Source: a virus (lineage: Duplodnaviria > Heunggongvirae > Uroviricota > Caudoviricetes). Taken from it: DNA of 37,827 nucleotides. The position numbers and the translations under genes are program-made. The notes beneath the pieces were generated by a model. That model was given only the letters and a program-made list of their open reading frames with translations. It searched no databases and was not told the DNA's origin. Below are positions 634 to 35,207 of this stretch, piece by piece; position 1 is the first letter of the stretch, and each line of letters opens with the position of its first letter. The stretch is taken from IMG/VR virus record IMGVR_UViG_2534681663_000017, positions 1 through 37,827 of that record; one strand, 5' to 3'.

Positions 634-1653
634 TTACGTAGTTACCATAGTTGCTAATGGATTAAAACGTAGCGCTGTTTCTAGGTGGTCAGGAGCCAGA
701 TGAGCATAGCGCATGGTCATTTTTATGTCGTGATGCCCAAGGATTTTCTGCAGAGCCAGGATGTTTCCGCCGGACATCATAAAGTGTGCTGCGAACGTAT
801 GACGCAGAACGTGTGTTAGCTGACCGCGTGGAAGCACAATAGAAGTCTTATCCATTACAGATAAAAACTGGAAGTAGCAGTCAGTGAAGAAATTGAAACC
901 GTCTAGGGCAATGATTTCCTCATACAGCTCTTTGCTAATCGGAATGCTTCGGTTCTTTTTGCCTTTGGTCCTGACGAATGTGATCCGGTATTTCGTAACC
1001 TGAGAACGGGTTAGGTTCACAGCTTCGCGCCAGCGTGCTCCGGTGCTCAGACAGATTTTAACGACAAGAGCGAGCAGGGGACTTTGGCGGTTGCAGTCGT
1101 ACAATAGCTCGGGAATTTGTTCATGCGTCAGCCAGGCCATCTCCTTTTCTGCGATGGTGAATTTTCGCATGTTCTCCAGTGGGTTCGGATACGACCATTC
1201 GCCCAGGCGGGATAGTTCGCTAAAAACACTACTTAGATAGCTTTGCTCCAGGTTAATGGTGACCGGGCTTGCTCCTTTCTTCCATTTCTCGCTGAAGTAG
1301 ATCTCGCCTGTCAGGCGTTTATCTCGATAGTGGGCAAACATTTTAGAGGTGAGATCAGTTGCAAGGGGATTGCCCAGAGCGTCAACCATCAGCAGCAATT
1401 TGTCATAGACATGCTGCCCAGCAGTCAGTGATTTACCATGTAGTTTGAACCATAGCTCAACCACGTCTTTTAGTGTTCGACGATCCACTGATTCACCTAG
1501 CCAGGGCTTTGCTTCGGTTTCTTCCATCGTGTGACGCTCAAAAGCCAGTGCTTCGCCTTTGGTGGCGAATTGTTTACGCACACGACGCCCACTACGTCCG
1601 GCGGGGTAACATTCGCAAAGCCATTTTCCTGTGGTGAGTTTTCGTACAGCCAT
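634..1653 (-). CDS. int: Tyrosine integrase, P2-type
   Basis: ORF track gives 391 aa but P2-family integrases begin MAVRKL...; this motif starts at ATG 1653 (340 aa). C-terminal catalytic region with HxxR...Y (LRHTFAAHFMMSGGNILALQKILGHHDIKMTMRYAHL). Confidence 0.9.
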   Translation of the reverse strand: MAVRKLTTGKWLCECYPAGRSGRRVRKQFATKGEALAFERHTMEETEAKPWLGESVDRRTLKDVVELWFKLHGKSLTAGQHVYDKLLLMVDALGNPLATDLTSKMFAHYRDKRLTGEIYFSEKWKKGASPVTINLEQSYLSSVFSELSRLGEWSYPNPLENMRKFTIAEKEMAWLTHEQIPELLYDCNRQSPLLALVVKICLSTGARWREAVNLTRSQVTKYRITFVRTKGKKNRSIPISKELYEEIIALDGFNFFTDCYFQFLSVMDKTSIVLPRGQLTHVLRHTFAAHFMMSGGNILALQKILGHHDIKMTMRYAHLAPDHLETALRFNPLATMVTT

Positions 1654-1841
1654 AAAAAATGCCCTCCAATAGAGAGCATTTTTACTGTATGTATAACCAG
1701 TGTCAATATATGAAATCCTGCGACCATACATCTCACTGAAGCCATAATGAAGTAGGCTATTCTTTTTGCTATGTGAGCATGTAACTTTTGCGGTTAACCT
1801 GTGGCTCATTTTTATTTTAGGCGCAGATATAAAAGCAAAAG

Positions 1842-2048: not shown

Positions 2049-2618
2049 CTATTTAACATACTTGACTGTTAAACTTATAATTTTACCAATTATTTCAATG
2101 TCTTCTATCTTGCATTCGAAGGCTCTGTTTCCACCCTCGACGAAGATTCTTCCACCGGGTAAACGAGTAATGTCACGGATCGTTATTTCGCCATCAATAC
2201 TTATTACCCATTTACCATCACGTATATCATCAAATTCCTTATCACAAATAAATTCAGAATTATTATCTGTGATTACAAAAAGATTCTTGAATGCCGACGG
2301 TAGAAATTCTCTATCGAAAATATAAAAACCGTCTTCACACAAGGCCCCATCAGATAATACATATTTAGCAACTTCCATAGTATTTGTATTACCTGAAGTT
2401 TGCTTTGAACCATGCCCGGTTGTGAGCCAATTAAGCGAGGTGCCTGTTTCAAGGGCGCACTGGATTACCCATTCTGCTGGGAATGAGTCACGCATGTAGC
2501 GTGTGGCGAGTGTACTTTTAGAGATTCCTAAATGATCGCACAACGCCTGTCGAGTCTTGAATCCATATGCTTCTACCATGCGCTCTATAGCGCCTCGTCC
2601 GCCTTTCTCCAAATTCAT
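2049..2618 (-). CDS. cI: Immunity repressor, phage 186 CI-like
   Basis: N-terminal region ...ERMVEAYGF...CALETGTSLNWLTTGHG resembles 186 CI as recalled; likely start ATG 2618 (GGAG 5 nt upstream on minus strand) rather than the GTG at 2624 given by the ORF track; divergent from the lytic operon. Confidence 0.75.
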   Translation of the reverse strand: MNLEKGGRGAIERMVEAYGFKTRQALCDHLGISKSTLATRYMRDSFPAEWVIQCALETGTSLNWLTTGHGSKQTSGNTNTMEVAKYVLSDGALCEDGFYIFDREFLPSAFKNLFVITDNNSEFICDKEFDDIRDGKWVISIDGEITIRDITRLPGGRIFVEGGNRAFECKIEDIEIIGKIISLTVKYVK

Positions 2619-2643
2619 GGTCACTCCAAGTGAACTTTTATCT

Positions 2644-2965: not shown

Positions 2966-2997
2966 TTCGATTCTGAAATACATCAGAGGCATTGACC

Positions 2998-3507
2998 ATG
3001 TTTGATTACCAAGTTTCCAAACATCCACATTTTGATGAATCCTGTCGTGCATTCGCATTGCGCCACAACCTGGTGCAACTGGCAGAACGTGCTGGCATGA
3101 ATGTGCAGATTCTGCGGAACAAGTTGAACCCAGCTCAACCTCATTTATTAACCGCACCAGAAATCTGGCTGCTTACCGATCTGACTGAAGATTCAACGCT
3201 GGTAGATGGTTTTCTGGCTCAGATTCACTGCCTGCCATGCGTACCGATTAATGAGGTGGCAAAAGAGAAACTGCCACATTACGTCATGAGTGCAACCGCA
3301 GAGATCGGGCGTGTTGCTGCAGGTGCGGTATCTGGCGATGTAAAAACCAGTGCAGGTCGTCGTGATGCTATCAGCAGCATTAACTCTGTAACACGACTGA
3401 TGGCGTTGGCTGCTGTTTCATTGCAGGCCCGTTTACAGGCTAACCCTGCGATGGCGAGTGCAGTTGATACCGTGACTGGCCTCGGTGCTTCATTTGGTTT
3501 GCTGTGA
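2998..3507 (+). CDS. cII: CII-like lysogeny-establishment regulator (186 CII family)
   Basis: Translation from ATG 2998, [24 protein letters not shown]...[25 protein letters not shown]..., matches 186 CII as recalled (169 aa). Confidence 0.85.
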
Positions 3508-4571: not shown

Positions 4572-4798
4572 TGGCTGATGCAATGGATCTCGTACAGCAG
4601 CGCGTTGAAGAAGAACGCCAGCGCCATATCCGTGCTGCCCGTGCCAAAACACCGGGCGTGTCTCGCGTGCTTTGTATTGAATGTGAAGCGCCAATTCCGC
4701 CAGCACGCCGCCGCGCCATTCCTGGAGTGCAGCTTTGCATTACCTGCCAGGAAATCGCAGAGCTGAAAGGCAAACATTACAACGGAGGGGCTGTATGA
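4571..4798 (+). CDS. TraR/DksA-family C4 zinc-finger protein
   Basis: 75 aa with CxxC...CxxC arrangement (CIECEAP...CITCQEIAE) typical of phage TraR/DksA-like zinc fingers; translationally coupled on both sides. Confidence 0.7.
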   Translation: MADAMDLVQQRVEEERQRHIRAARAKTPGVSRVLCIECEAPIPPARRRAIPGVQLCITCQEIAELKGKHYNGGAV

Positions 4799-5652
4799 GC
4801 ACCATCCTGAAATGGGCGGGTAATAAAACCGCCATTATGTCCGAACTGAAAAAATACCTTCCTGCTGGCCCGCGACTGGTTGAACCTTTCGCGGGTTCTT
4901 GTGCTGTGATGATGGCGACGGATTACCCCAGCTATCTGGTTGCGGATATTAATCCTGATTTAATCAACCTCTATAAAAAGATTGCCGCTGATTGCGAAGC
5001 GTTTATATCTCGTGCCAGAGTTTTATTTGAGGAAGCAAACAGTGAGCTGGCTTATTACAACATAAGACAGGAGTTTAATTACTCAACTGAAATTACTGAT
5101 TTCATGAAGGCGATATATTTCCTGTATCTCAATCGTCACGGTTACCGTGGTTTATGTCGCTATAACAAGAGCGGGCATTTCAACATTCCCTACGGTAATT
5201 ATAAAAATCCGTATTTCCCTGAAAAAGAAATTCGCGCATTTGCAGAGAAAGCCCCGCGGGCAACGTTTATCTGCGCCAGCTTTGATGAAACGCTGGCGAT
5301 GTTGAAGGCGGGGGATGTGGTGTATTGCGATCCGCCGTATGACGGTACGTTTTCCGGCTATCACACTGATGGTTTCACTGAAGATGACCAGTATCACCTG
5401 GCATCCGTTCTTGAACATCGGTCGTCAGAAGGTCATCCGGTCATTGTTTCTAACAGTGACACATCCCTGATTCGTTCGCTGTATCGCAATTTCACTCACC
5501 ACTACATCAAGGCAAAACGCAGCATCGGCGTGTCGGCTGGCGAGAGTAAATCTGCAACAGAAATCATTGCTGTTTCCGGGGCGCGCTGCTGGGTGGGATT
5601 TGATCCTTCGCGTGGCGTGGATAGTTCTGCTGTGTACGAGGTGCGTGTATGA
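4795..5652 (+). CDS. dam: DNA adenine methyltransferase (Dam-like, N6-adenine MTase)
   Basis: Starts [11 protein letters not shown] (ATG 4795, overlapping the previous stop as ATGA); contains FAGSCAV SAM-binding-like motif and catalytic DPPY (CDPPYDGTF). Confidence 0.85.
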
Positions 5653-8063
5653 GTCATGCCGATATGAGCGACTCTAGCGGCTTTAACGAGGCCGCTGCAG
5701 CATTTTCATGGAACGGCCCGAAAAAGGCCATAAACCCTTATCTGGACCCGGCGGAAGTTGCGCCGGTTTCTGCGCTTTCAAACCTGATCACTCTGTATGC
5801 TGCCGATAACGAGCAGGAACAGCTGCGCCGCGAGGAATTGAGTGAACAGGTCTGGGAGCGTTATTTCTTTAATGAATCCCGTGATCCTGTCCAGCGCGAA
5901 ATGGAGCAGGATAAGCTCATTAGTCGGGCAAAGCTGGCGCATGAGCAGCAGCGTTTTAACCCGGACATGGTCATTCTGGCGGACGTCAGCGCCCAGCCCA
6001 CCCACATCAGCAAGCCGCTGATGCAACGTATCGAATACTTCAGCAGCCTGGGCAGGCCAAAGGCTTATTCCCGCTATTTGCGTGAGACGATTAAGCCATG
6101 TCTGGAGCGACTGGATTGTGTACGCGACAGTCAGCTATCTACTTCTTTCCGTTTTATGGCAAGCCATCAAGGGCTGGAGGGCCTGCTGATCCTGCCTGAA
6201 ATGAGTCAGGATCAGGTGAAACGCCTGTCCACCCTGGTAGCTGCGCATATGAGCATGTGTCTTGAGGCCGCTTGTGGTGATTTGTATACCAACGATGACG
6301 TAAAGCCAGAAGAAATCCGCAAGACATGGGAAAAGGTGGCAGCGGAAACCCTGCGTCTGGATGTTATCCCGCCTGCGTTTGAGAAACTTCGTCGGAAAAG
6401 AAACCGCCGCAAACCTGTGCCCTATGAACTCATACCGGGTTCGCTGGCACGTATGCTTTGCGCCGACTGGTGGTATCGAAAATTGTGGAAGATGCGTTGC
6501 GAATGGCGGGAAGAGCAGTTGCGTGCTGTCTGTCTGGTCAGCAAAAAAGCATCTCCCTATGTCAGCTATGAAGCCGTGATGCATAAACGTGAGCAGCGCC
6601 GCAAGTCGCTGGAGTTTTTCCGTTCTCATGAACTGGTGAACGAAGACGGAGACACGCTGGATATGGAAGATGTGGTAAACGCCAGCAGCAGCAACCCGGC
6701 ACATCGCCGCAATGAGATGATGGCCTGCGTTAAAGGTCTGGAGCTTATCGCGGAAATGCGCGGTGACTGCGCCGTTTTCTACACCATCACATGTCCGTCA
6801 CGTTTCCATTCCACGCTCAATAACGGCAGGCCCAACCCGACCTGGACAAATGCGACGGTAAGACAAAGCAGCGATTATCTGGTCGGCATGTTTGCTGCAT
6901 TTCGTAAGGCGATGCACAAAACCGGGTTGCGCTGGTATGGCGTACGGGTGGCTGAGCCGCACCATGACGGTACTGTGCACTGGCATCTCATGTGTTTCAT
7001 GCGCAAAAAAGACCGCCGCGCCATTACTGCATTGTTGCGTAAGTTTGCCATCCGTGAAGACCGCGAGGAGCTGGGCAATAACACGGGCCCACGCTTTAAG
7101 TCTGAGCTGATAAACCCACGCAAAGGAACGCCGACAAGCTACATCGCAAAATACATCAGTAAGAACATTGACGGGCGTGGTCTGGCTGGCGAGATCAGCA
7201 AGGAAACGGGTAAATCCCTGCGTGATAACGCCGAATACGTTAATGCCTGGGCGTCTCTGCATCGTGTTCAGCAGTTCCGCTTCTTTGGTATTCCGGGGCG
7301 CCAGGCTTACCGTGAACTGCGATTGCTGGCTGGTCAGGCGGCAAGACAACAGGGTGACAAAAAAGCAGGTGCGCCGGTACTGGATGATCCGCGTCTTGAT
7401 GCCATCCTGGCTGCTGCTGATGCTGGTTGTTTTGCCACCTACATCATGAAGCAGGGCGGCGTACTGGTTCCCCGCAAATATCACCTTATCAGAACAGCTT
7501 ATGAAATTAACGAAGAGCCGACTGCCTATGGCGATCACGGTATTCGTATTTATGGCATCTGGTCACCCATTTCAGAGGGCAAGATCTGCACTCATGCAGT
7601 GAAGTGGAAAATGGTTCGTAAGGCCGTTGACGTTCAGGAGGCGGTAGCCGACCAGGGCGCTTGCGCCCCTTGGACTCGTGGCAATAACTGTCCCCTTGCT
7701 GAAAATTTGTACCAACAAGGGAAAGACAAATCAGCTGATGGGGGCTCCAGAACGGACATTACCCGCATGGATGACAAGGAATTGCACGATTACCTGCACA
7801 GTATGAGCAAAAAAGATCGCCGGGAGCTGGCAGCAAGGTTGCGCTTGGTGAAACCGAAACGGCGTAAAGACTACAAACAGCGAATTACAGATCATCAGCA
7901 TCAGCAGCTCGTCTATGAACTGAAGTCCAGAGGATTTGATGGCAGCGAGAAAGAAGTCGATTTGCTCCTTCGCGGTGGCAGTATTCCGTCAGGAGCAGGC
8001 TTGCGTATCTTCTATCGGAACCAGCGTTTGCGGGAAGATGATAAGTGGCGGAACCTGTATTAA
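5649..8063 (+). CDS. A: Replication initiation endonuclease, P2 gpA family (rolling-circle initiator)
   Basis: 804-aa ORF; HUH-like metal motif [11 protein letters not shown] and paired-tyrosine region YIAKYISKN, as recalled for P2 A; start overlaps dam stop (ATGA). Confidence 0.9.
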
Positions 8064-8158
8064 TTACGCGGGTTAACAATTCGTGCTCTTAATAATACCA
8101 GGCATATCAGGCTGATGAACGTAAAAAAACGTTTTACATCAGTAAGATTATTATATAC

Positions 8159-8174
8159 TGTAAATATAAACAGT
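8159..8174. promoter_or_regulatory. LexA (SOS) box CTGT-N8-ACAG
   Basis: CTGTAAATATAAACAG (flanks TACTGT...ACAGTG) matches the E. coli LexA operator consensus; lies 43 bp upstream of the small ORF/DinI-like operon. Confidence 0.6.
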
Positions 8175-8216
8175 GGTTATGTATACAGCATTTCTTGTGG
8201 TGTCATAGGAGGAAAG

Positions 8217-8405
8217 ATGCAGGACTATTTTTTGGAGTCTTTGAAGCTCCAGCGCATTGATTTTTTTCTTAAGCTTGTAGCGGCTAGTGAGTGTAGTGAT
8301 GAAGAGAAGGGGCTGGCTTTGCAGTGGGGTTCTGAACTAACAGATGAACTCATGGCAAAAATCAGAACCCACGAATACAACCGCTCAATGGATGTCATCA
8401 GTTGA
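8217..8405 (+). CDS. Small hypothetical protein, first gene of LexA-box operon (possible N-terminal part of a Tum-like antirepressor)
   Basis: 62-aa ORF from ATG 8217 with AGGAGG 3 nt upstream; ends 10 bp before the DinI-like gene. Confidence 0.4.
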   Translation: MQDYFLESLKLQRIDFFLKLVAASECSDEEKGLALQWGSELTDELMAKIRTHEYNRSMDVIS

Positions 8406-8415
8406 GGTGACTTTT

Positions 8416-8649
8416 ATGCGCATTGAAATAATGATCGATAAAGAGCAGAAGATTAGCCAGTCTATCCTGGACGCCCTTGAATCCGAGCTTTACCGCAATC
8501 TGCGCCCCCTGTATCCCAAAACGGTAATTCGTATCCGCAAAGGTAGCTCTAACGGTGTGGAACTGACCGGACTGCAACTGGACGAAGAAAGAAAACAAGT
8601 GATGAAAATTATGCAGAAGGTGTGGGAAGACGACAGCTGGCTGCATTAA
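8416..8649 (+). CDS. DinI-family protein (Tum C-terminal-domain-like)
   Basis: MRIEIMIDKEQ...ILQKVWEDDSW aligns by eye with E. coli DinI (MRIEVTIAK...ILQETWESADDW); GAGGTGA upstream of ATG 8416. Confidence 0.75.
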   Translation: MRIEIMIDKEQKISQSILDALESELYRNLRPLYPKTVIRIRKGSSNGVELTGLQLDEERKQVMKIMQKVWEDDSWLH

Positions 8650-8651
8650 GA

Positions 8652-8694
8652 AACGTTGCTGGCGTCTGAACTTGCTTCTGACGTCAGCAACGTT
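8652..8694 (+). terminator. Hairpin after DinI-like gene (15-bp stem, one mismatch)
   Basis: AACGTTGCTGGCGTC ... GACGTCAGCAACGTT inverted repeat immediately after the stop; no strong T-tract, so terminator function is uncertain. Confidence 0.3.
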
Positions 8695-8915
8695 GAACAA
8701 CTAGTTTAGTGGGGCATTAGTCATGGGGTAAAATACAGTAACCATTATTTTCACTTCCGCTCAGATTTAACCGAACGTTAGTTTTGCTACGTATGATGGG
8801 CTGCAAATTACCTTTTGGGATTTGTGATAGATACGAAAATCCTATTAGATGCTTGTTAGACCGGAAGCGCCACTTCGAACGAAAAGTAATGGCCACTTAT
8901 GCCGGTTTAAAAGCC

Positions 8916-9446
8916 TTAACCTTGTATAGTTATTTGAATATTTTCTTCATTGACACCAAAGTATAGGGCTAGCCCTGCTTTTGCCTCCTGAAGTGTTAAC
9001 GGCTTAACTACATTTTCTTCTTCTTCTTCGTACTCATCACCCGCTTGATCGACAATCGAATTAGTCGGGGTTAATTTTGGAAGAGCTTTAAATTCCAACT
9101 TGTCAGCCTCAATGCCAATGTCTTTGAGGTTGCGATAAGAAACGGGATTCCGATTGCCATCCCATTGTCCTGGGATGTCAATTTCAGCATAAGAATTGAT
9201 GTTTATGATCCAGCGTTTAGGGTTTTCTGGAGCCCTGCTTACTCCCGAGATTCGACCGATCATAAAAGCATGATGATGTTTTGCTTCTTGTGATCCCCAG
9301 TCCTTTCTCGAATTTTGTACACAAACTAAATATTCGTGCTTAGCTGCATGGCTGGCGTCAAGTCTCCATGCTTGGCTTCCCCCTGTGTTCAAAATCTCTG
9401 TTAAACCACGAGCAGTAAGTACAGTAATACAGTTGGTAGTAGCCAT
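8916..9446 (-). CDS. Hypothetical cargo protein at the old/tin-equivalent position (acidic EEEEE stretch), candidate defence or accessory gene
   Basis: 176-aa ORF on the opposite strand to the early operon, RBS GGAGTCAC before ATG 9446, AT-rich codon usage; no motif recognised. Confidence 0.55.
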   Translation of the reverse strand: MATTNCITVLTARGLTEILNTGGSQAWRLDASHAAKHEYLVCVQNSRKDWGSQEAKHHHAFMIGRISGVSRAPENPKRWIININSYAEIDIPGQWDGNRNPVSYRNLKDIGIEADKLEFKALPKLTPTNSIVDQAGDEYEEEEENVVKPLTLQEAKAGLALYFGVNEENIQITIQG

Positions 9447-9763
9447 TGAATTGTGACTCCGTCTTTTTTAGAGAAATACTATTGATGAATGTAGTTTACG
9501 TATTTTTTTATTGAGTAGTCAAGTTAGTATTCTGCTCGTTATTGGCTGTTTTTTGAGTGTTGTGAGTTAGTACTTTGTGTAGTACCTCTTGGTTTATGAG
9601 GGTTAAATCTAAGTTATGACAAAGGGAGGCAGGGGGAACGCGCAGCGCAAGGGGTACAGGAGGCCATAAGGACTCACTTGAAGTAAGAAAAGATCGATAA
9701 AGCAACAATGCATGTCTATGCCGCATGAATTCGCATGATCGTTTGAGGATCGTTTTAGCTGAG

Positions 9764-9791
9764 GCCCGCTAGGAATGGCGGGCTTTTGTTT
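9764..9791 (+). terminator. Rho-independent terminator-like hairpin (GCCCGC-loop-GCGGGC + TTTTGTTT)
   Basis: 6-bp GC stem, 8-nt loop, followed by a T-tract; located just upstream of the cos-like motif. Confidence 0.4.
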
Positions 9792-9832
9792 ATGTCATGC
9801 AAGTGCATGAAAACCACTACATAAAGCGGGCA

Positions 9833-9851
9833 GGCGTGGCGGGGATACGAG
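9833..9851 (+). other. Candidate cos site (cohesive-end motif GGCGTGGCGGGGA...)
   Basis: GGCGTGGCGGGGATACGAG followed by GCGCGC resembles the 19-nt cohesive ends recalled for 186 (GGCGTGGCGGGGAAAGCAT) and P2 (GGCGAGGCGGGGAAAGCAC); orientation relative to Q is as in P2. Match is partial and recalled from memory. Confidence 0.35.
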
Positions 9852-10133
9852 CGCGCGCACCTTCTAATAATTACAAAGTCATTGAGATATGCAGGGGATA
9901 TTCTATATTTCATTTAATCGATATACCCAACCGAGCTACTAGATTGATTGTGCAAAGTTAATCAACTAACTATTAGGTGAAAATATATTCCCAATAGTTA
10001 TCATTCAGATTTATTTAATTCCTCGTTCGTATCATTTTTTATTTACCAATAAGCTGTGTGATTTTTATGTTAAATTAACGGCAATAGCATAATATGTTGT
10101 GAAAATGTGATGAGATCTACTTGATATTATTTT

Positions 10134-10139: not shown

Positions 10140-10216
10140 GGTGTTAATTGTTAGTCAGCTAAACGGTGTTACATTTTATTTTCAACGAAATTAAGTTTTT
10201 GTCATGGAGAGGCTTT

Positions 10217-11038
10217 ATGAAGGTTAGTTTTGATGTTGTTATTAAAAGTGGTGCTTATGATGTTGATATGGATTACGCGCTTAAAACATTAGCTGGTACA
10301 TCGAATGTAGTTTGCCTTTTGGCAGAAGCGATACTTCGTGGAAGAATTATTGAACGGCGTACCCATGCAAATGATATCAGAGCAAAGCTTAAACACAGTT
10401 TTCCGGGTTCTTATGGTCAAAAATTTGACATCGAGATAAATGACTCGACACTGATTTCTCGTTTGAATTCTATGGGACGTAGTGTTTTCTCTGAAGTAAT
10501 GAGTTACTATATTTGTGAAGCGCTATATGTTGAGCATAATGGTTTGACAGATGCAGCACAGAAAATCATTGATAGTTTAGTTGCAATAGAGGATGAGCTT
10601 ACAAAGCGAATTCGTTCCCCACTAAAAGATATGCATAAAGTCACTACAATGAATGGTTATAATGTTGAGTTATCTTATCGAAAACCTGGATCACCAGAAA
10701 ACATTATAACGTTGACACCAGAAACTGAGATTAATATTTCAGATACTGAAATACTACAGGTTTCCCATGATATATCTGTAATCATAACTCGTTTTAATTC
10801 AATGACAGGAAATGGTCGACTTATACTTGAAGGGTATGAAGAACATGGCACTGTAGCATTTGGATTTTATGATAATTTAAGATATGTAACAGAAAACCAT
10901 AAAAGACAAATCACTCAAAACTTGCATCACAATAATGGCCTTCCATCAGATAGATGGCAATATATGAATTTAACTGTAAGTGATATGGTTCTTCCTAGTG
11001 GGGATGTTATTAAATATCTAATTCGTAATATACCTTGA
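10217..11038 (+). CDS. Hypothetical soluble protein, gene 1 of AT-rich two-gene cargo operon (candidate defence sensor/partner)
   Basis: ORF track starts at GTG 10166; ATG 10217 has GGAGAGG upstream (273 aa). No recognisable catalytic motif; strongly AT-biased codons. Confidence 0.6.
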   Translation: MKVSFDVVIKSGAYDVDMDYALKTLAGTSNVVCLLAEAILRGRIIERRTHANDIRAKLKHSFPGSYGQKFDIEINDSTLISRLNSMGRSVFSEVMSYYICEALYVEHNGLTDAAQKIIDSLVAIEDELTKRIRSPLKDMHKVTTMNGYNVELSYRKPGSPENIITLTPETEINISDTEILQVSHDISVIITRFNSMTGNGRLILEGYEEHGTVAFGFYDNLRYVTENHKRQITQNLHHNNGLPSDRWQYMNLTVSDMVLPSGDVIKYLIRNIP

Positions 11039-11048
11039 TAGAGTTATT

Positions 11049-11744
11049 ATGAAAATTCACTCTATTAAAATCTTTGCTGCATTAGTAATTATAATTACGT
11101 GGTTGAGTTATTTTGCAAAGTTTGGTGATTGGTTTAACTTCTCGAGTGATACGGCTGTTTGGGGGCAGTTTGGGGATTTTTTAGGAGGGGTGATTAATCC
11201 ACTGCTTACATTTATATCTGTTGTTTACTTGATTAACTCTGTAAATCTTCAGCGAGAGGCGAACGCTAGCCTGATTGCGCTTGAAGAGTTTAAGAAAACT
11301 GAGACCAAATTTTATAACATGCTTGAGTCACAACGAAGTGGCTTCGAAAGCTTTAAAATTGTAGATAGTGTGGATGGGAAACCTTTAGTTATCAAGGACG
11401 GTGACGCGGTTACATATATTGAGGATGTTGTTGTAGAAATGGTAATCCAAGGAAGTACAAAAGGAGAAATCTCAAATAAAATAGGTGGAATGGATAAAGC
11501 GGATAATATATTTAGTATAGTGAGGCGCTTTCATAATATTATTAAGTTGATTAAAAGGGAAATTCCGGAAAACTTAAGAAGTGAATATTATGATAGTTTA
11601 GTTAATATGACTGAGTATAAGCAAATATGTCTTATATTAATATCAATGGAGCTTTTTGATTGGCCTATTTTAAGTAGCATTGATGAAAGTGGTGTGTTTA
11701 ATATTGAGGCATTAATGGAATATAGAAAAGCATTTAGACCATAA
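11049..11744 (+). CDS. Two-TM membrane protein, gene 2 of cargo operon (candidate membrane effector)
   Basis: 231 aa; two N-terminal hydrophobic helices (IKIFAALVIIITWLSYFAKF and FGDFLGGVINPLLTFISVVYLI) then a charged soluble domain; starts 10 bp after gene 1. Confidence 0.65.
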   Translation: MKIHSIKIFAALVIIITWLSYFAKFGDWFNFSSDTAVWGQFGDFLGGVINPLLTFISVVYLINSVNLQREANASLIALEEFKKTETKFYNMLESQRSGFESFKIVDSVDGKPLVIKDGDAVTYIEDVVVEMVIQGSTKGEISNKIGGMDKADNIFSIVRRFHNIIKLIKREIPENLRSEYYDSLVNMTEYKQICLILISMELFDWPILSSIDESGVFNIEALMEYRKAFRP

Positions 11745-34972: not shown

Positions 34973-35207
34973 CGCTGCCGCCATTTTGTCGCCATCGTTA
35001 AAAAACAGTGCTTCTAACATCATGATCTTAAACACCATAAATTTCAGGCAACAAAAAACCCATCAACCTTGAACCGAAATGGCGGGGGTGATGGGCTCCA
35101 CAAAATGGGGACATCAAAGAAAAGCAGTGGCACTAATTAAGACTGATGCCCTGCGGAAAAGTTCTGCGGTTGTGCAAAAAAATTTCATTTTCAGGGCAAC
35201 TTCAGTT

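Follow-up and report, generated by a model that had tools for sequence, protein, structure and literature searches.

A probable SOS induction module, tumA–tumB, behind a double overlapping SOS box in a Fels-2/DuoHS-type prophage of Escherichia coli

Within the 37,827 nucleotides (nt) of DNA analysed here (positions 1 to 37,827 of the IMG/VR virus record IMGVR_UViG_2534681663_000017, Caudoviricetes; hereafter the window), a LexA (SOS) operator is followed by a gene for a 62-residue protein, tumA, and by a gene for a 77-residue DinI-family protein, tumB. The window represents a stretch of the E. coli chromosome with a P2/186-like prophage, and a prediction made from its sequence alone (the original prediction) had proposed that the locus is a Tum-type, LexA-controlled antirepressor module, either a split form of the phage 186 gene tum or a distinct two-protein arrangement. 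Our analysis supports this proposal; the locus is very likely the SOS induction module of a Fels-2/DuoHS-type prophage, i.e. a LexA-repressed operon making TumA, an antirepressor, and TumB, a DinI-like protein.

Layout of the locus and its operator

The elements of the locus are as follows:

8133–8138, plus strand: probable −35 hexamer (TTTACA) of the SOS promoter, a predicted counterpart of 186 p95
8156–8175, plus strand: LexA (SOS) box 1, 20-mer TACTGTAAATATAAACAGTG, with its CTGT-N8-ACAG core at 8158–8173
8173–8188, plus strand: LexA box 2, GTGGTTATGTATACAG, sharing G8173 with box 1 and predicted to bind LexA
8207–8212, plus strand: Shine–Dalgarno sequence of tumA (AGGAGG), 4 nt before the ATG and conserved in relatives
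8217–8405, plus strand: tumA (ATG at 8217), coding for the putative 62-residue antirepressor, homologous to the N-terminal half of 186 Tum
8416–8649, plus strand: tumB (ATG at 8416), coding for the 77-residue DinI-family protein, with its own GAGG Shine–Dalgarno sequence (8404–8407) overlapping the tumA stop codon

The tum operator (8158–8188) is a colicin-type double overlapping SOS box. The 16-nt core of box 1, CTGTAAATATAAACAG (8158–8173), is the single occurrence of CTGT-N8-ACAG in the 37.8-kb window; box 1 departs from the 20-nt LexA consensus at three positions, and none of 100 shuffles reached three mismatches or fewer. The original prediction had described a consensus-quality LexA operator about 40 bp upstream of the 62-residue open reading frame (ORF), and the 20-mer indeed ends 41 nt before the ATG; its other coordinates and distances likewise proved right to within a base or two. 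Taken together, the two boxes are an exact fit to the 31-nt pattern CTGT-N8-NCAG/GTGG-N8-ACAG, which was matched in none of 100 shuffles, and LexA is predicted to occupy both. A LexA box was found upstream of every homologue examined, as a double box in the window, Fels-2, DuoHS, SopEPhi and MLG42, and as a single box in 186, PSP3 and the ESSI2-type phages. We found no description of the double SOS box for Fels-2-type phages in the literature covered, which did not include Bunny et al. 2002 itself.

The left arm of box 1, TACTGT, doubles as the probable −10 element. In nine of the nine phage loci compared, TT(T/C)ACA (TTCCCA in PSP3) lies 17–18 nt before TACTGT, while the spacer sequences diverge; the 186 record annotates the arrangement TTCACA-18 nt-TACTGT as p95. 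It is from this annotation and the conserved spacing that we infer the tum promoter. For a LexA-repressed promoter of tumA, as predicted from the sequence, the operator is present, conserved and correctly placed; genetic evidence for LexA control comes from the 95%-identical module of DuoHS, in which induction needs both LexA cleavage and tum. A 96-residue ORF that opens at an ATG at 8115 begins upstream of the operator, and was rejected as the real start of tumA; we regard it as an artefact of mechanical ORF calling.

Products of tumA and tumB

The original prediction could be checked by comparing the 62-residue product with the N-terminal half of 186 Tum. BLASTP of the two proteins gave no alignment; the similarity was detected by family profile. 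A profile built from six TumA sequences matches residues 5–49 of 186 Tum (19.9 bits), and a 23-member profile matches residues 5–48 with 32.0 bits (E-value 4.9e-8, 10,002 sequences searched), against a maximum of 9.5 bits among 10,000 composition-matched shuffles. Since the match lies far above the shuffles, the 62-residue protein is homologous to the N-terminal half of Tum. PSP3 TumA scored 4 bits against the small profile and did not rise above the shuffles against the large one. The window product has no match in Pfam, NCBIfam or PADLOC, and a sequence search of the Protein Data Bank (PDB) returned only chance matches to designed proteins.

The TumA family comprises 415 clusters at 90% identity and 57 at 50%, nearly all of 58–75 residues, with the consensus MQDxFxESLxLQRIDLFxKLVAxSxCSxxEKELAxxWxSELTxEL, in which W37 is the only invariant residue. 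An AlphaFold2 model based on the family alignment predicts a two-helix hairpin (helices 2–23 and 28–61; mean predicted local distance difference test score, pLDDT, 86), and the ratio of non-synonymous to synonymous polymorphism (pN/pS) of tumA, 0.10–0.16, indicates purifying selection. The original prediction was to be abandoned for an ORF that neither resembled Tum nor was conserved; the ORF both resembles Tum and is conserved. TumA is identical at 60 of 62 residues to Fels-2 STM2728, and at 60 of 62 to ECHS_RS04495 of E. coli HS.

The split tumA/tumB arrangement has already been described (PSP3, Fels-2) and has been deletion-tested in E. coli HS. In the passage of Lemire et al. 2011 (PMC3121763) that cites Bunny, Liu and Roth 2002, tum is said to be split in two in Fels-2 and PSP3, and for PSP3 the upstream gene of the split tum is reported to carry the antirepressor activity (Lemire et al. 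2011, PMC3121763). ECHS_RS04495, a 189-nt gene upstream of the DinI-like gene ECHS_RS04500 in the DuoHS prophage, was named tum and deleted, which abolished induction by mitomycin C; lexA(Ind-) also blocks mitomycin C induction (Ortiz de Ora et al. 2025, PMC12055606). The CI repressor of the window is identical to that of DuoHS at 188 of 188 residues (33% identical to 186 CI), which, with 60 of 62 identical residues in TumA, makes the repressor/antirepressor pair the same as in the tested system. By analogy with this orthologue, where TumA is 97% identical and CI identical, TumA would be required for SOS induction in the prophage of the window. According to the recounting of Bunny et al. 2002 in PMC12626290, the surviving lexA sulA null Salmonella isolates had all lost Fels-2; this fits a constitutive expression of tum that is lethal to the lysogen.

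The DinI-family gene which the original prediction placed after the 62-residue ORF is borne out by a match of TumB to Pfam DinI, PF06183, across the entire profile (positions 1–63 of 63; E-value 1.3e-22, 80.4 bits against a cut-off of 24.2), and TumB also matches the solved DinI structure (PDB 1GHH, E-value 3.6e-6). The corresponding comparison with the C-terminal half of Tum was likewise positive, TumB being 41% identical to residues 71–145 of 186 Tum; it aligns to positions 71–148 of the 151-column phrog_189, a PHROG built around full-length Tum. Against the NCBIfam equivalog for host DinI, TumB scores 42 bits, below the cut-off of 111, so that it is a DinI family member rather than the host orthologue. 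The pN/pS of tumB (0.00–0.15) again indicates purifying selection. Judging by family membership, TumB probably acts on RecA filaments, modulating their activity, and not on CI.

Alternative readings and proposed mechanism

The two ORFs lie 10 bp apart in different frames, as the original prediction had noted (gap 8406–8415; tumB in frame +1 relative to tumA). The TumB frame is open from 8341, and for this reason a 1-nt deletion anywhere in 8341–8402 would fuse the ORFs into one protein of about 140 residues, an outcome of a single-nucleotide change that the original prediction had also raised. The gap and relative frame vary as follows:

Window and Fels-2: gap of 10 nt, relative frame +1
SopEPhi: gap of 11 nt, relative frame +2
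Yersinia phage MLG42: gap of 12 nt, relative frame 0
PSP3: gap of 3 nt, relative frame 0

Some relatives have tumA without tumB: in ESSI2-type phages, a LexA box is followed by a gene for a TumA homologue of 70–74 residues (41–49% identity) but by no DinI-like gene, which implies that the DinI half is dispensable for the module in some lineages. The tumA-only loci are those of Escherichia phage ESSI2_ev015 (1501–1713 of locus L007) and Cronobacter phage ESSI-2 (1501–1722 of locus L008).

The ease with which a single-nucleotide deletion in 8341–8402 restores one frame of about 140 residues is what would be expected of a recently broken tum, in which a formerly fused gene like that of 186 has suffered a frameshift or nonsense mutation, leaving a decaying or non-functional module; the PSP3 genes, in the same frame and held apart by only a stop codon and 3 nt, could be read in the same way. 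However, the identical two-ORF layout recurs in 67 phage records, and 1125 of 5426 complete E. coli genomes have it as well; each ORF has a Shine–Dalgarno sequence and an ATG of its own; the gaps of 10, 11, 12 and 3 nt among relatives span all three frames, pN/pS does not exceed 0.16 in either ORF, and the split orthologue is functional in DuoHS. No fused TumA–DinI protein was found among the representatives of the 57 clusters at 50% identity. A recent lesion is thus largely refuted already, and we consider it highly improbable. Alternatively, ribosomes might produce a fused, 186-like protein through a programmed +1 frameshift at the 3' end of tumA, whose final 62 nt leave the +1 frame of TumB open and where a small hairpin spans the junction (8394–8411, flagged by a scan). 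This hairpin is no better than shuffles (z-score −1.4), and was also rejected as an attenuator or coupling element; TumB has its own Shine–Dalgarno sequence and ATG, and the ESSI2-type phages have tumA with no tumB to shift into. Moreover, the shift required is +1, +2 or 0 across close relatives, so there can be no conserved frameshift signal, and there is very little chance that frameshifting operates here. The varying gap and frame, the tumA-only phages, the low pN/pS values and the lack of a fused form together show separate expression of the two genes, and rule out a recent pseudogenising frameshift as well as programmed frameshifting. On these comparisons, the split is the normal, conserved state of the clade and not a lesion.

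It could also be supposed that the 62-residue ORF is irrelevant and that the LexA-controlled payload is a phage DinI, tuning the host SOS response as in other prophages; databases name just the DinI gene, the 62-residue ORF being 'hypothetical' in RefSeq, of unknown function as phrog_698, and without a Pfam or NCBIfam match. Yet conservation of the protein extends down to 35–45% identity, with a fixed motif and low pN/pS; this ORF is homologous to the N-terminal half of Tum, and has a homologue behind a LexA box in ESSI2-type phages that lack dinI; deletion of its orthologue abolishes induction. For the orthologue this reading is already refuted, and for the window we give it almost no credence. 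A less remote alternative accepts a Tum-type module, but holds that this copy is crippled by the substitution V38G, leaving the prophage poorly inducible or non-inducible by SOS. Codon 38 of tumA (8328–8330) is GGT (Gly), whereas the nearest relatives have GTT (Val); the residue directly follows Trp37, the sole invariant one, in predicted helix 2. In E. coli 1297KP, the nearest genome, a single nucleotide differs across the 621-nt query (99.8% identity), and the TumA of this genome departs from that of the window solely in having V38. Against a crippled copy, the exact G38 protein occurs on 11 contigs (NCBI accessions; one named Salmonella enterica, one multispecies Enterobacteriaceae), which implies that the allele is no sequencing error but has been maintained and has spread; furthermore, CI, the operator and tumB are all intact, and the effect of one glycine in a helix is not reliably predictable. 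We therefore regard a crippled copy as unlikely, although G38 may, speculatively, represent an attenuated antirepressor.

For the LexA-repressed tumA–tumB operon, the preferred reading, we propose the following mechanism. In the undamaged lysogen, LexA bound at the double operator (8158–8188), which overlaps the −10 element and start region of the promoter, would silence both genes. DNA damage would activate RecA, leading to self-cleavage of LexA and transcription of the operon. TumA would then bind the non-cleavable 186-type CI and remove it from its operators, allowing lytic growth, with TumB being translated separately from its own ribosome-binding site. That CI is the target of TumA, and that the two are in contact, is presumed from 186 Tum, which according to Shearwin et al. 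1998, as cited in PMC3121763, binds CI reversibly and prevents operator binding. A cognate CI repressor of the 186 type is present in the same prophage as tumA.

Several observations weigh against this reading, or against parts of it. The left half of box 2 is non-consensus, GTGG replacing CTGT, and a generic promoter scan called no tum promoter, which we attribute to the weakness of the −10 element. The only TumA with reported antirepressor activity (a personal communication) is that of PSP3, and it is linked to the TumA of the window through 186 Tum and synteny. For TumB, deletion of the dinI homologues of Gifsy prophages was without clear effect on induction (PMC3121763). For the copy in the window, the function of the module is predicted from sequence features, homologies, conservation and purifying selection, and its allele could be weakened, position 38 being V, I, L, A, F or M in 141 of 141 relatives with a readable motif.

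Prophage setting and comparison with known systems

The prophage is a Fels-2/DuoHS-type member of the Peduoviridae, a relative of phage 186, integrated beside ybjL in E. coli. The right flank of the window contains ogr, the small RNA RybB, ybjL, ybjM and grxA; the DuoHS prophage of E. coli HS also adjoins ybjL, and the location of RybB between the ogr end and ybjL places the prophage of the window at the same chromosomal site as DuoHS. Its early region and right boundary include:

634–1809, minus strand: integrase
2049–2624, minus strand: 186-type CI repressor (Pfam Phage_CI_repr and Phage_CI_C)
2744–2965: Cox/Apl-like gene
2992–3507: CII
4735–5652: Dam methylase
5649–8063: replication gene A (Pfam Phage_GPA)
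35050–35128, minus strand: RybB small RNA (Rfam RF00110, 100 bits), between the ogr end of the prophage and ybjL

The tum module begins about 70 nt downstream of the end of gene A (8063), and this position after gene A is common to the window module, 186 p95–tum, PSP3 tumA–tumB and Fels-2. The stretch from the tum module to the portal gene is a variable cargo region of P2-like phages, often with anti-phage systems. In the window, it contains:

8652–8694: strong hairpin directly after the tumB stop codon, where homology with Fels-2/DuoHS ends
8916–9446, minus strand: gene for a 176-residue protein (phrog_37247, a PHROG of unknown function), within a cassette of about 1.06 kb
10166–11038, plus strand: gene for a 290-residue protein (PHROG 13337, unknown function), between the tum module and the portal gene
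11049–11744, plus strand: gene for a 231-residue protein (PHROG 8999, unknown function), adjoining the previous gene

The hairpin at 8652–8694 (−35.4 kcal/mol, z-score −5.8) has no U-run on the plus strand; a U-rich tail follows it on the minus strand. It opens the cassette (8650–9708), which lies between tumB and a conserved 150-nt piece (9709–9859) with a terminator-like GCCCGC-loop-GCGGGC-TTTTGTTT, the hairpin lying near 9764–9791. In other P2-like phages the 150-nt piece directly follows tumB. The 290- and 231-residue proteins have no Pfam, NCBIfam or PADLOC match, only the PHROG assignments, and the DNA of their genes is absent from the phage collection.

The tum module decides the waking of very common enterobacterial prophages after DNA damage, including damage by genotoxic antibiotics, and about a fifth of complete E. 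coli genomes are carriers. As the biology is established, no new question is opened by the window copy; its practical value lies in annotation, and the double SOS box and the V38G allele provide small, testable leads on how the induction threshold is tuned. TumA is labelled 'hypothetical protein' in RefSeq, 'levan regulatory protein' (a mislabel) in some records, and 'unknown function' as phrog_698, and many database entries of 87–96 residues extend tumA to the upstream ATG (8115 here), through promoter and operator. Owing to this annotation gap and the extended gene calls, predictors of prophage SOS-inducibility can miss TumA.

A 48-nt query across the operator gave 1212 plasmid matches, of which 809 were to mobilizable plasmids. 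In each of the two plasmid matches inspected, a pore-forming gene of the colicin E1 type follows shortly after the matching stretch, whose sequence is CTGTATATAAAACCAGTGGTTATATATACAG. The ColE1-type colicin promoter (2210–2240 of locus L013) has the same 31-nt layout as the operator of the window, with two boxes sharing one base, and box 2 of SopEPhi is identical to box 2 of a ColE1-like plasmid. The boxes of the colicin promoter lie downstream of a separate −10 element, whereas box 1 of the window appears to contain the −10, and the genes downstream of the colicin and tum double boxes are unrelated. Colicin double boxes were reported to bind two LexA dimers cooperatively, with tight, delayed expression and no detectable basal expression (PMC2994835). 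By analogy, we tentatively suggest, as a possibility that falls short of being probable, that Fels-2/DuoHS-type phages, unlike those of the 186, PSP3 and ESSI2 types, drive tumA from a colicin-type double operator which binds two LexA dimers, suppressing basal expression and delaying derepression, such that these common prophages of E. coli, Salmonella and Klebsiella would fire only after sustained, severe damage. On the same suggestion, the near-identity of box 2 to that of ColE1-type plasmids would stem from a 'lethal-gene' operator having been exchanged between colicin plasmids and phages, or having converged in the two, and V38G might be an attenuated antirepressor that lowers inducibility further.

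Among phage systems, the Gifsy dinI-gfoA/gftA-irsA operons resemble the module of the window in being LexA-repressed and in combining a small antirepressor with a DinI homologue, and there too the repressor is inactivated by binding rather than cleavage (PMC3121763). They differ in that dinI comes first and in belonging to lambdoid phages with unrelated repressors; their antirepressors can be likened to TumA by operon layout only.

Phage 186 has its module at the same place after gene A, under a LexA-repressed promoter with the −10 within the box, and has a CI of the same family as that of the window, although the two are only 33% identical. Its Tum (146 residues) combines, in a single polypeptide, an N-terminal stretch of 48 residues homologous to TumA and a C-terminal stretch of 75 residues 41% identical to TumB; the SOS box is single, and orf97 lies downstream of tum, where the window has different cargo. 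The 186 record lists a separately initiated DinI-like product of 77 residues inside tum, implying that even the fused gene makes the C-terminal half alone. PSP3 is closer in organisation, with a LexA box, a 60-residue tumA and a 77-residue DinI-like tumB, all downstream of gene A as in the window; its record describes tumA as 'similar to 5' end 186 tum; UV induction of prophage' and tumB as 'similar to dinI and 3' end of 186 tum'. Between PSP3 and the window, TumB is clearly orthologous, but in PSP3 the SOS box is single, only 3 nt separate the two genes, which share one frame, and TumA is too diverged to score above shuffles with the family profile of the window protein.

The closest correspondence is with Fels-2 (STM2728/STM2726.1) and DuoHS, which share about 95% DNA identity with the window between the end of gene A and the stop codon of tumB, together with the double SOS box and the 10-nt gap. 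They have V38 in TumA where the window has G38, and the similarity ends exactly at the tumB stop codon, beyond which the window carries a different cargo cassette. The module of the window is a near-identical copy of the known tum–dinI module of Fels-2 and DuoHS.

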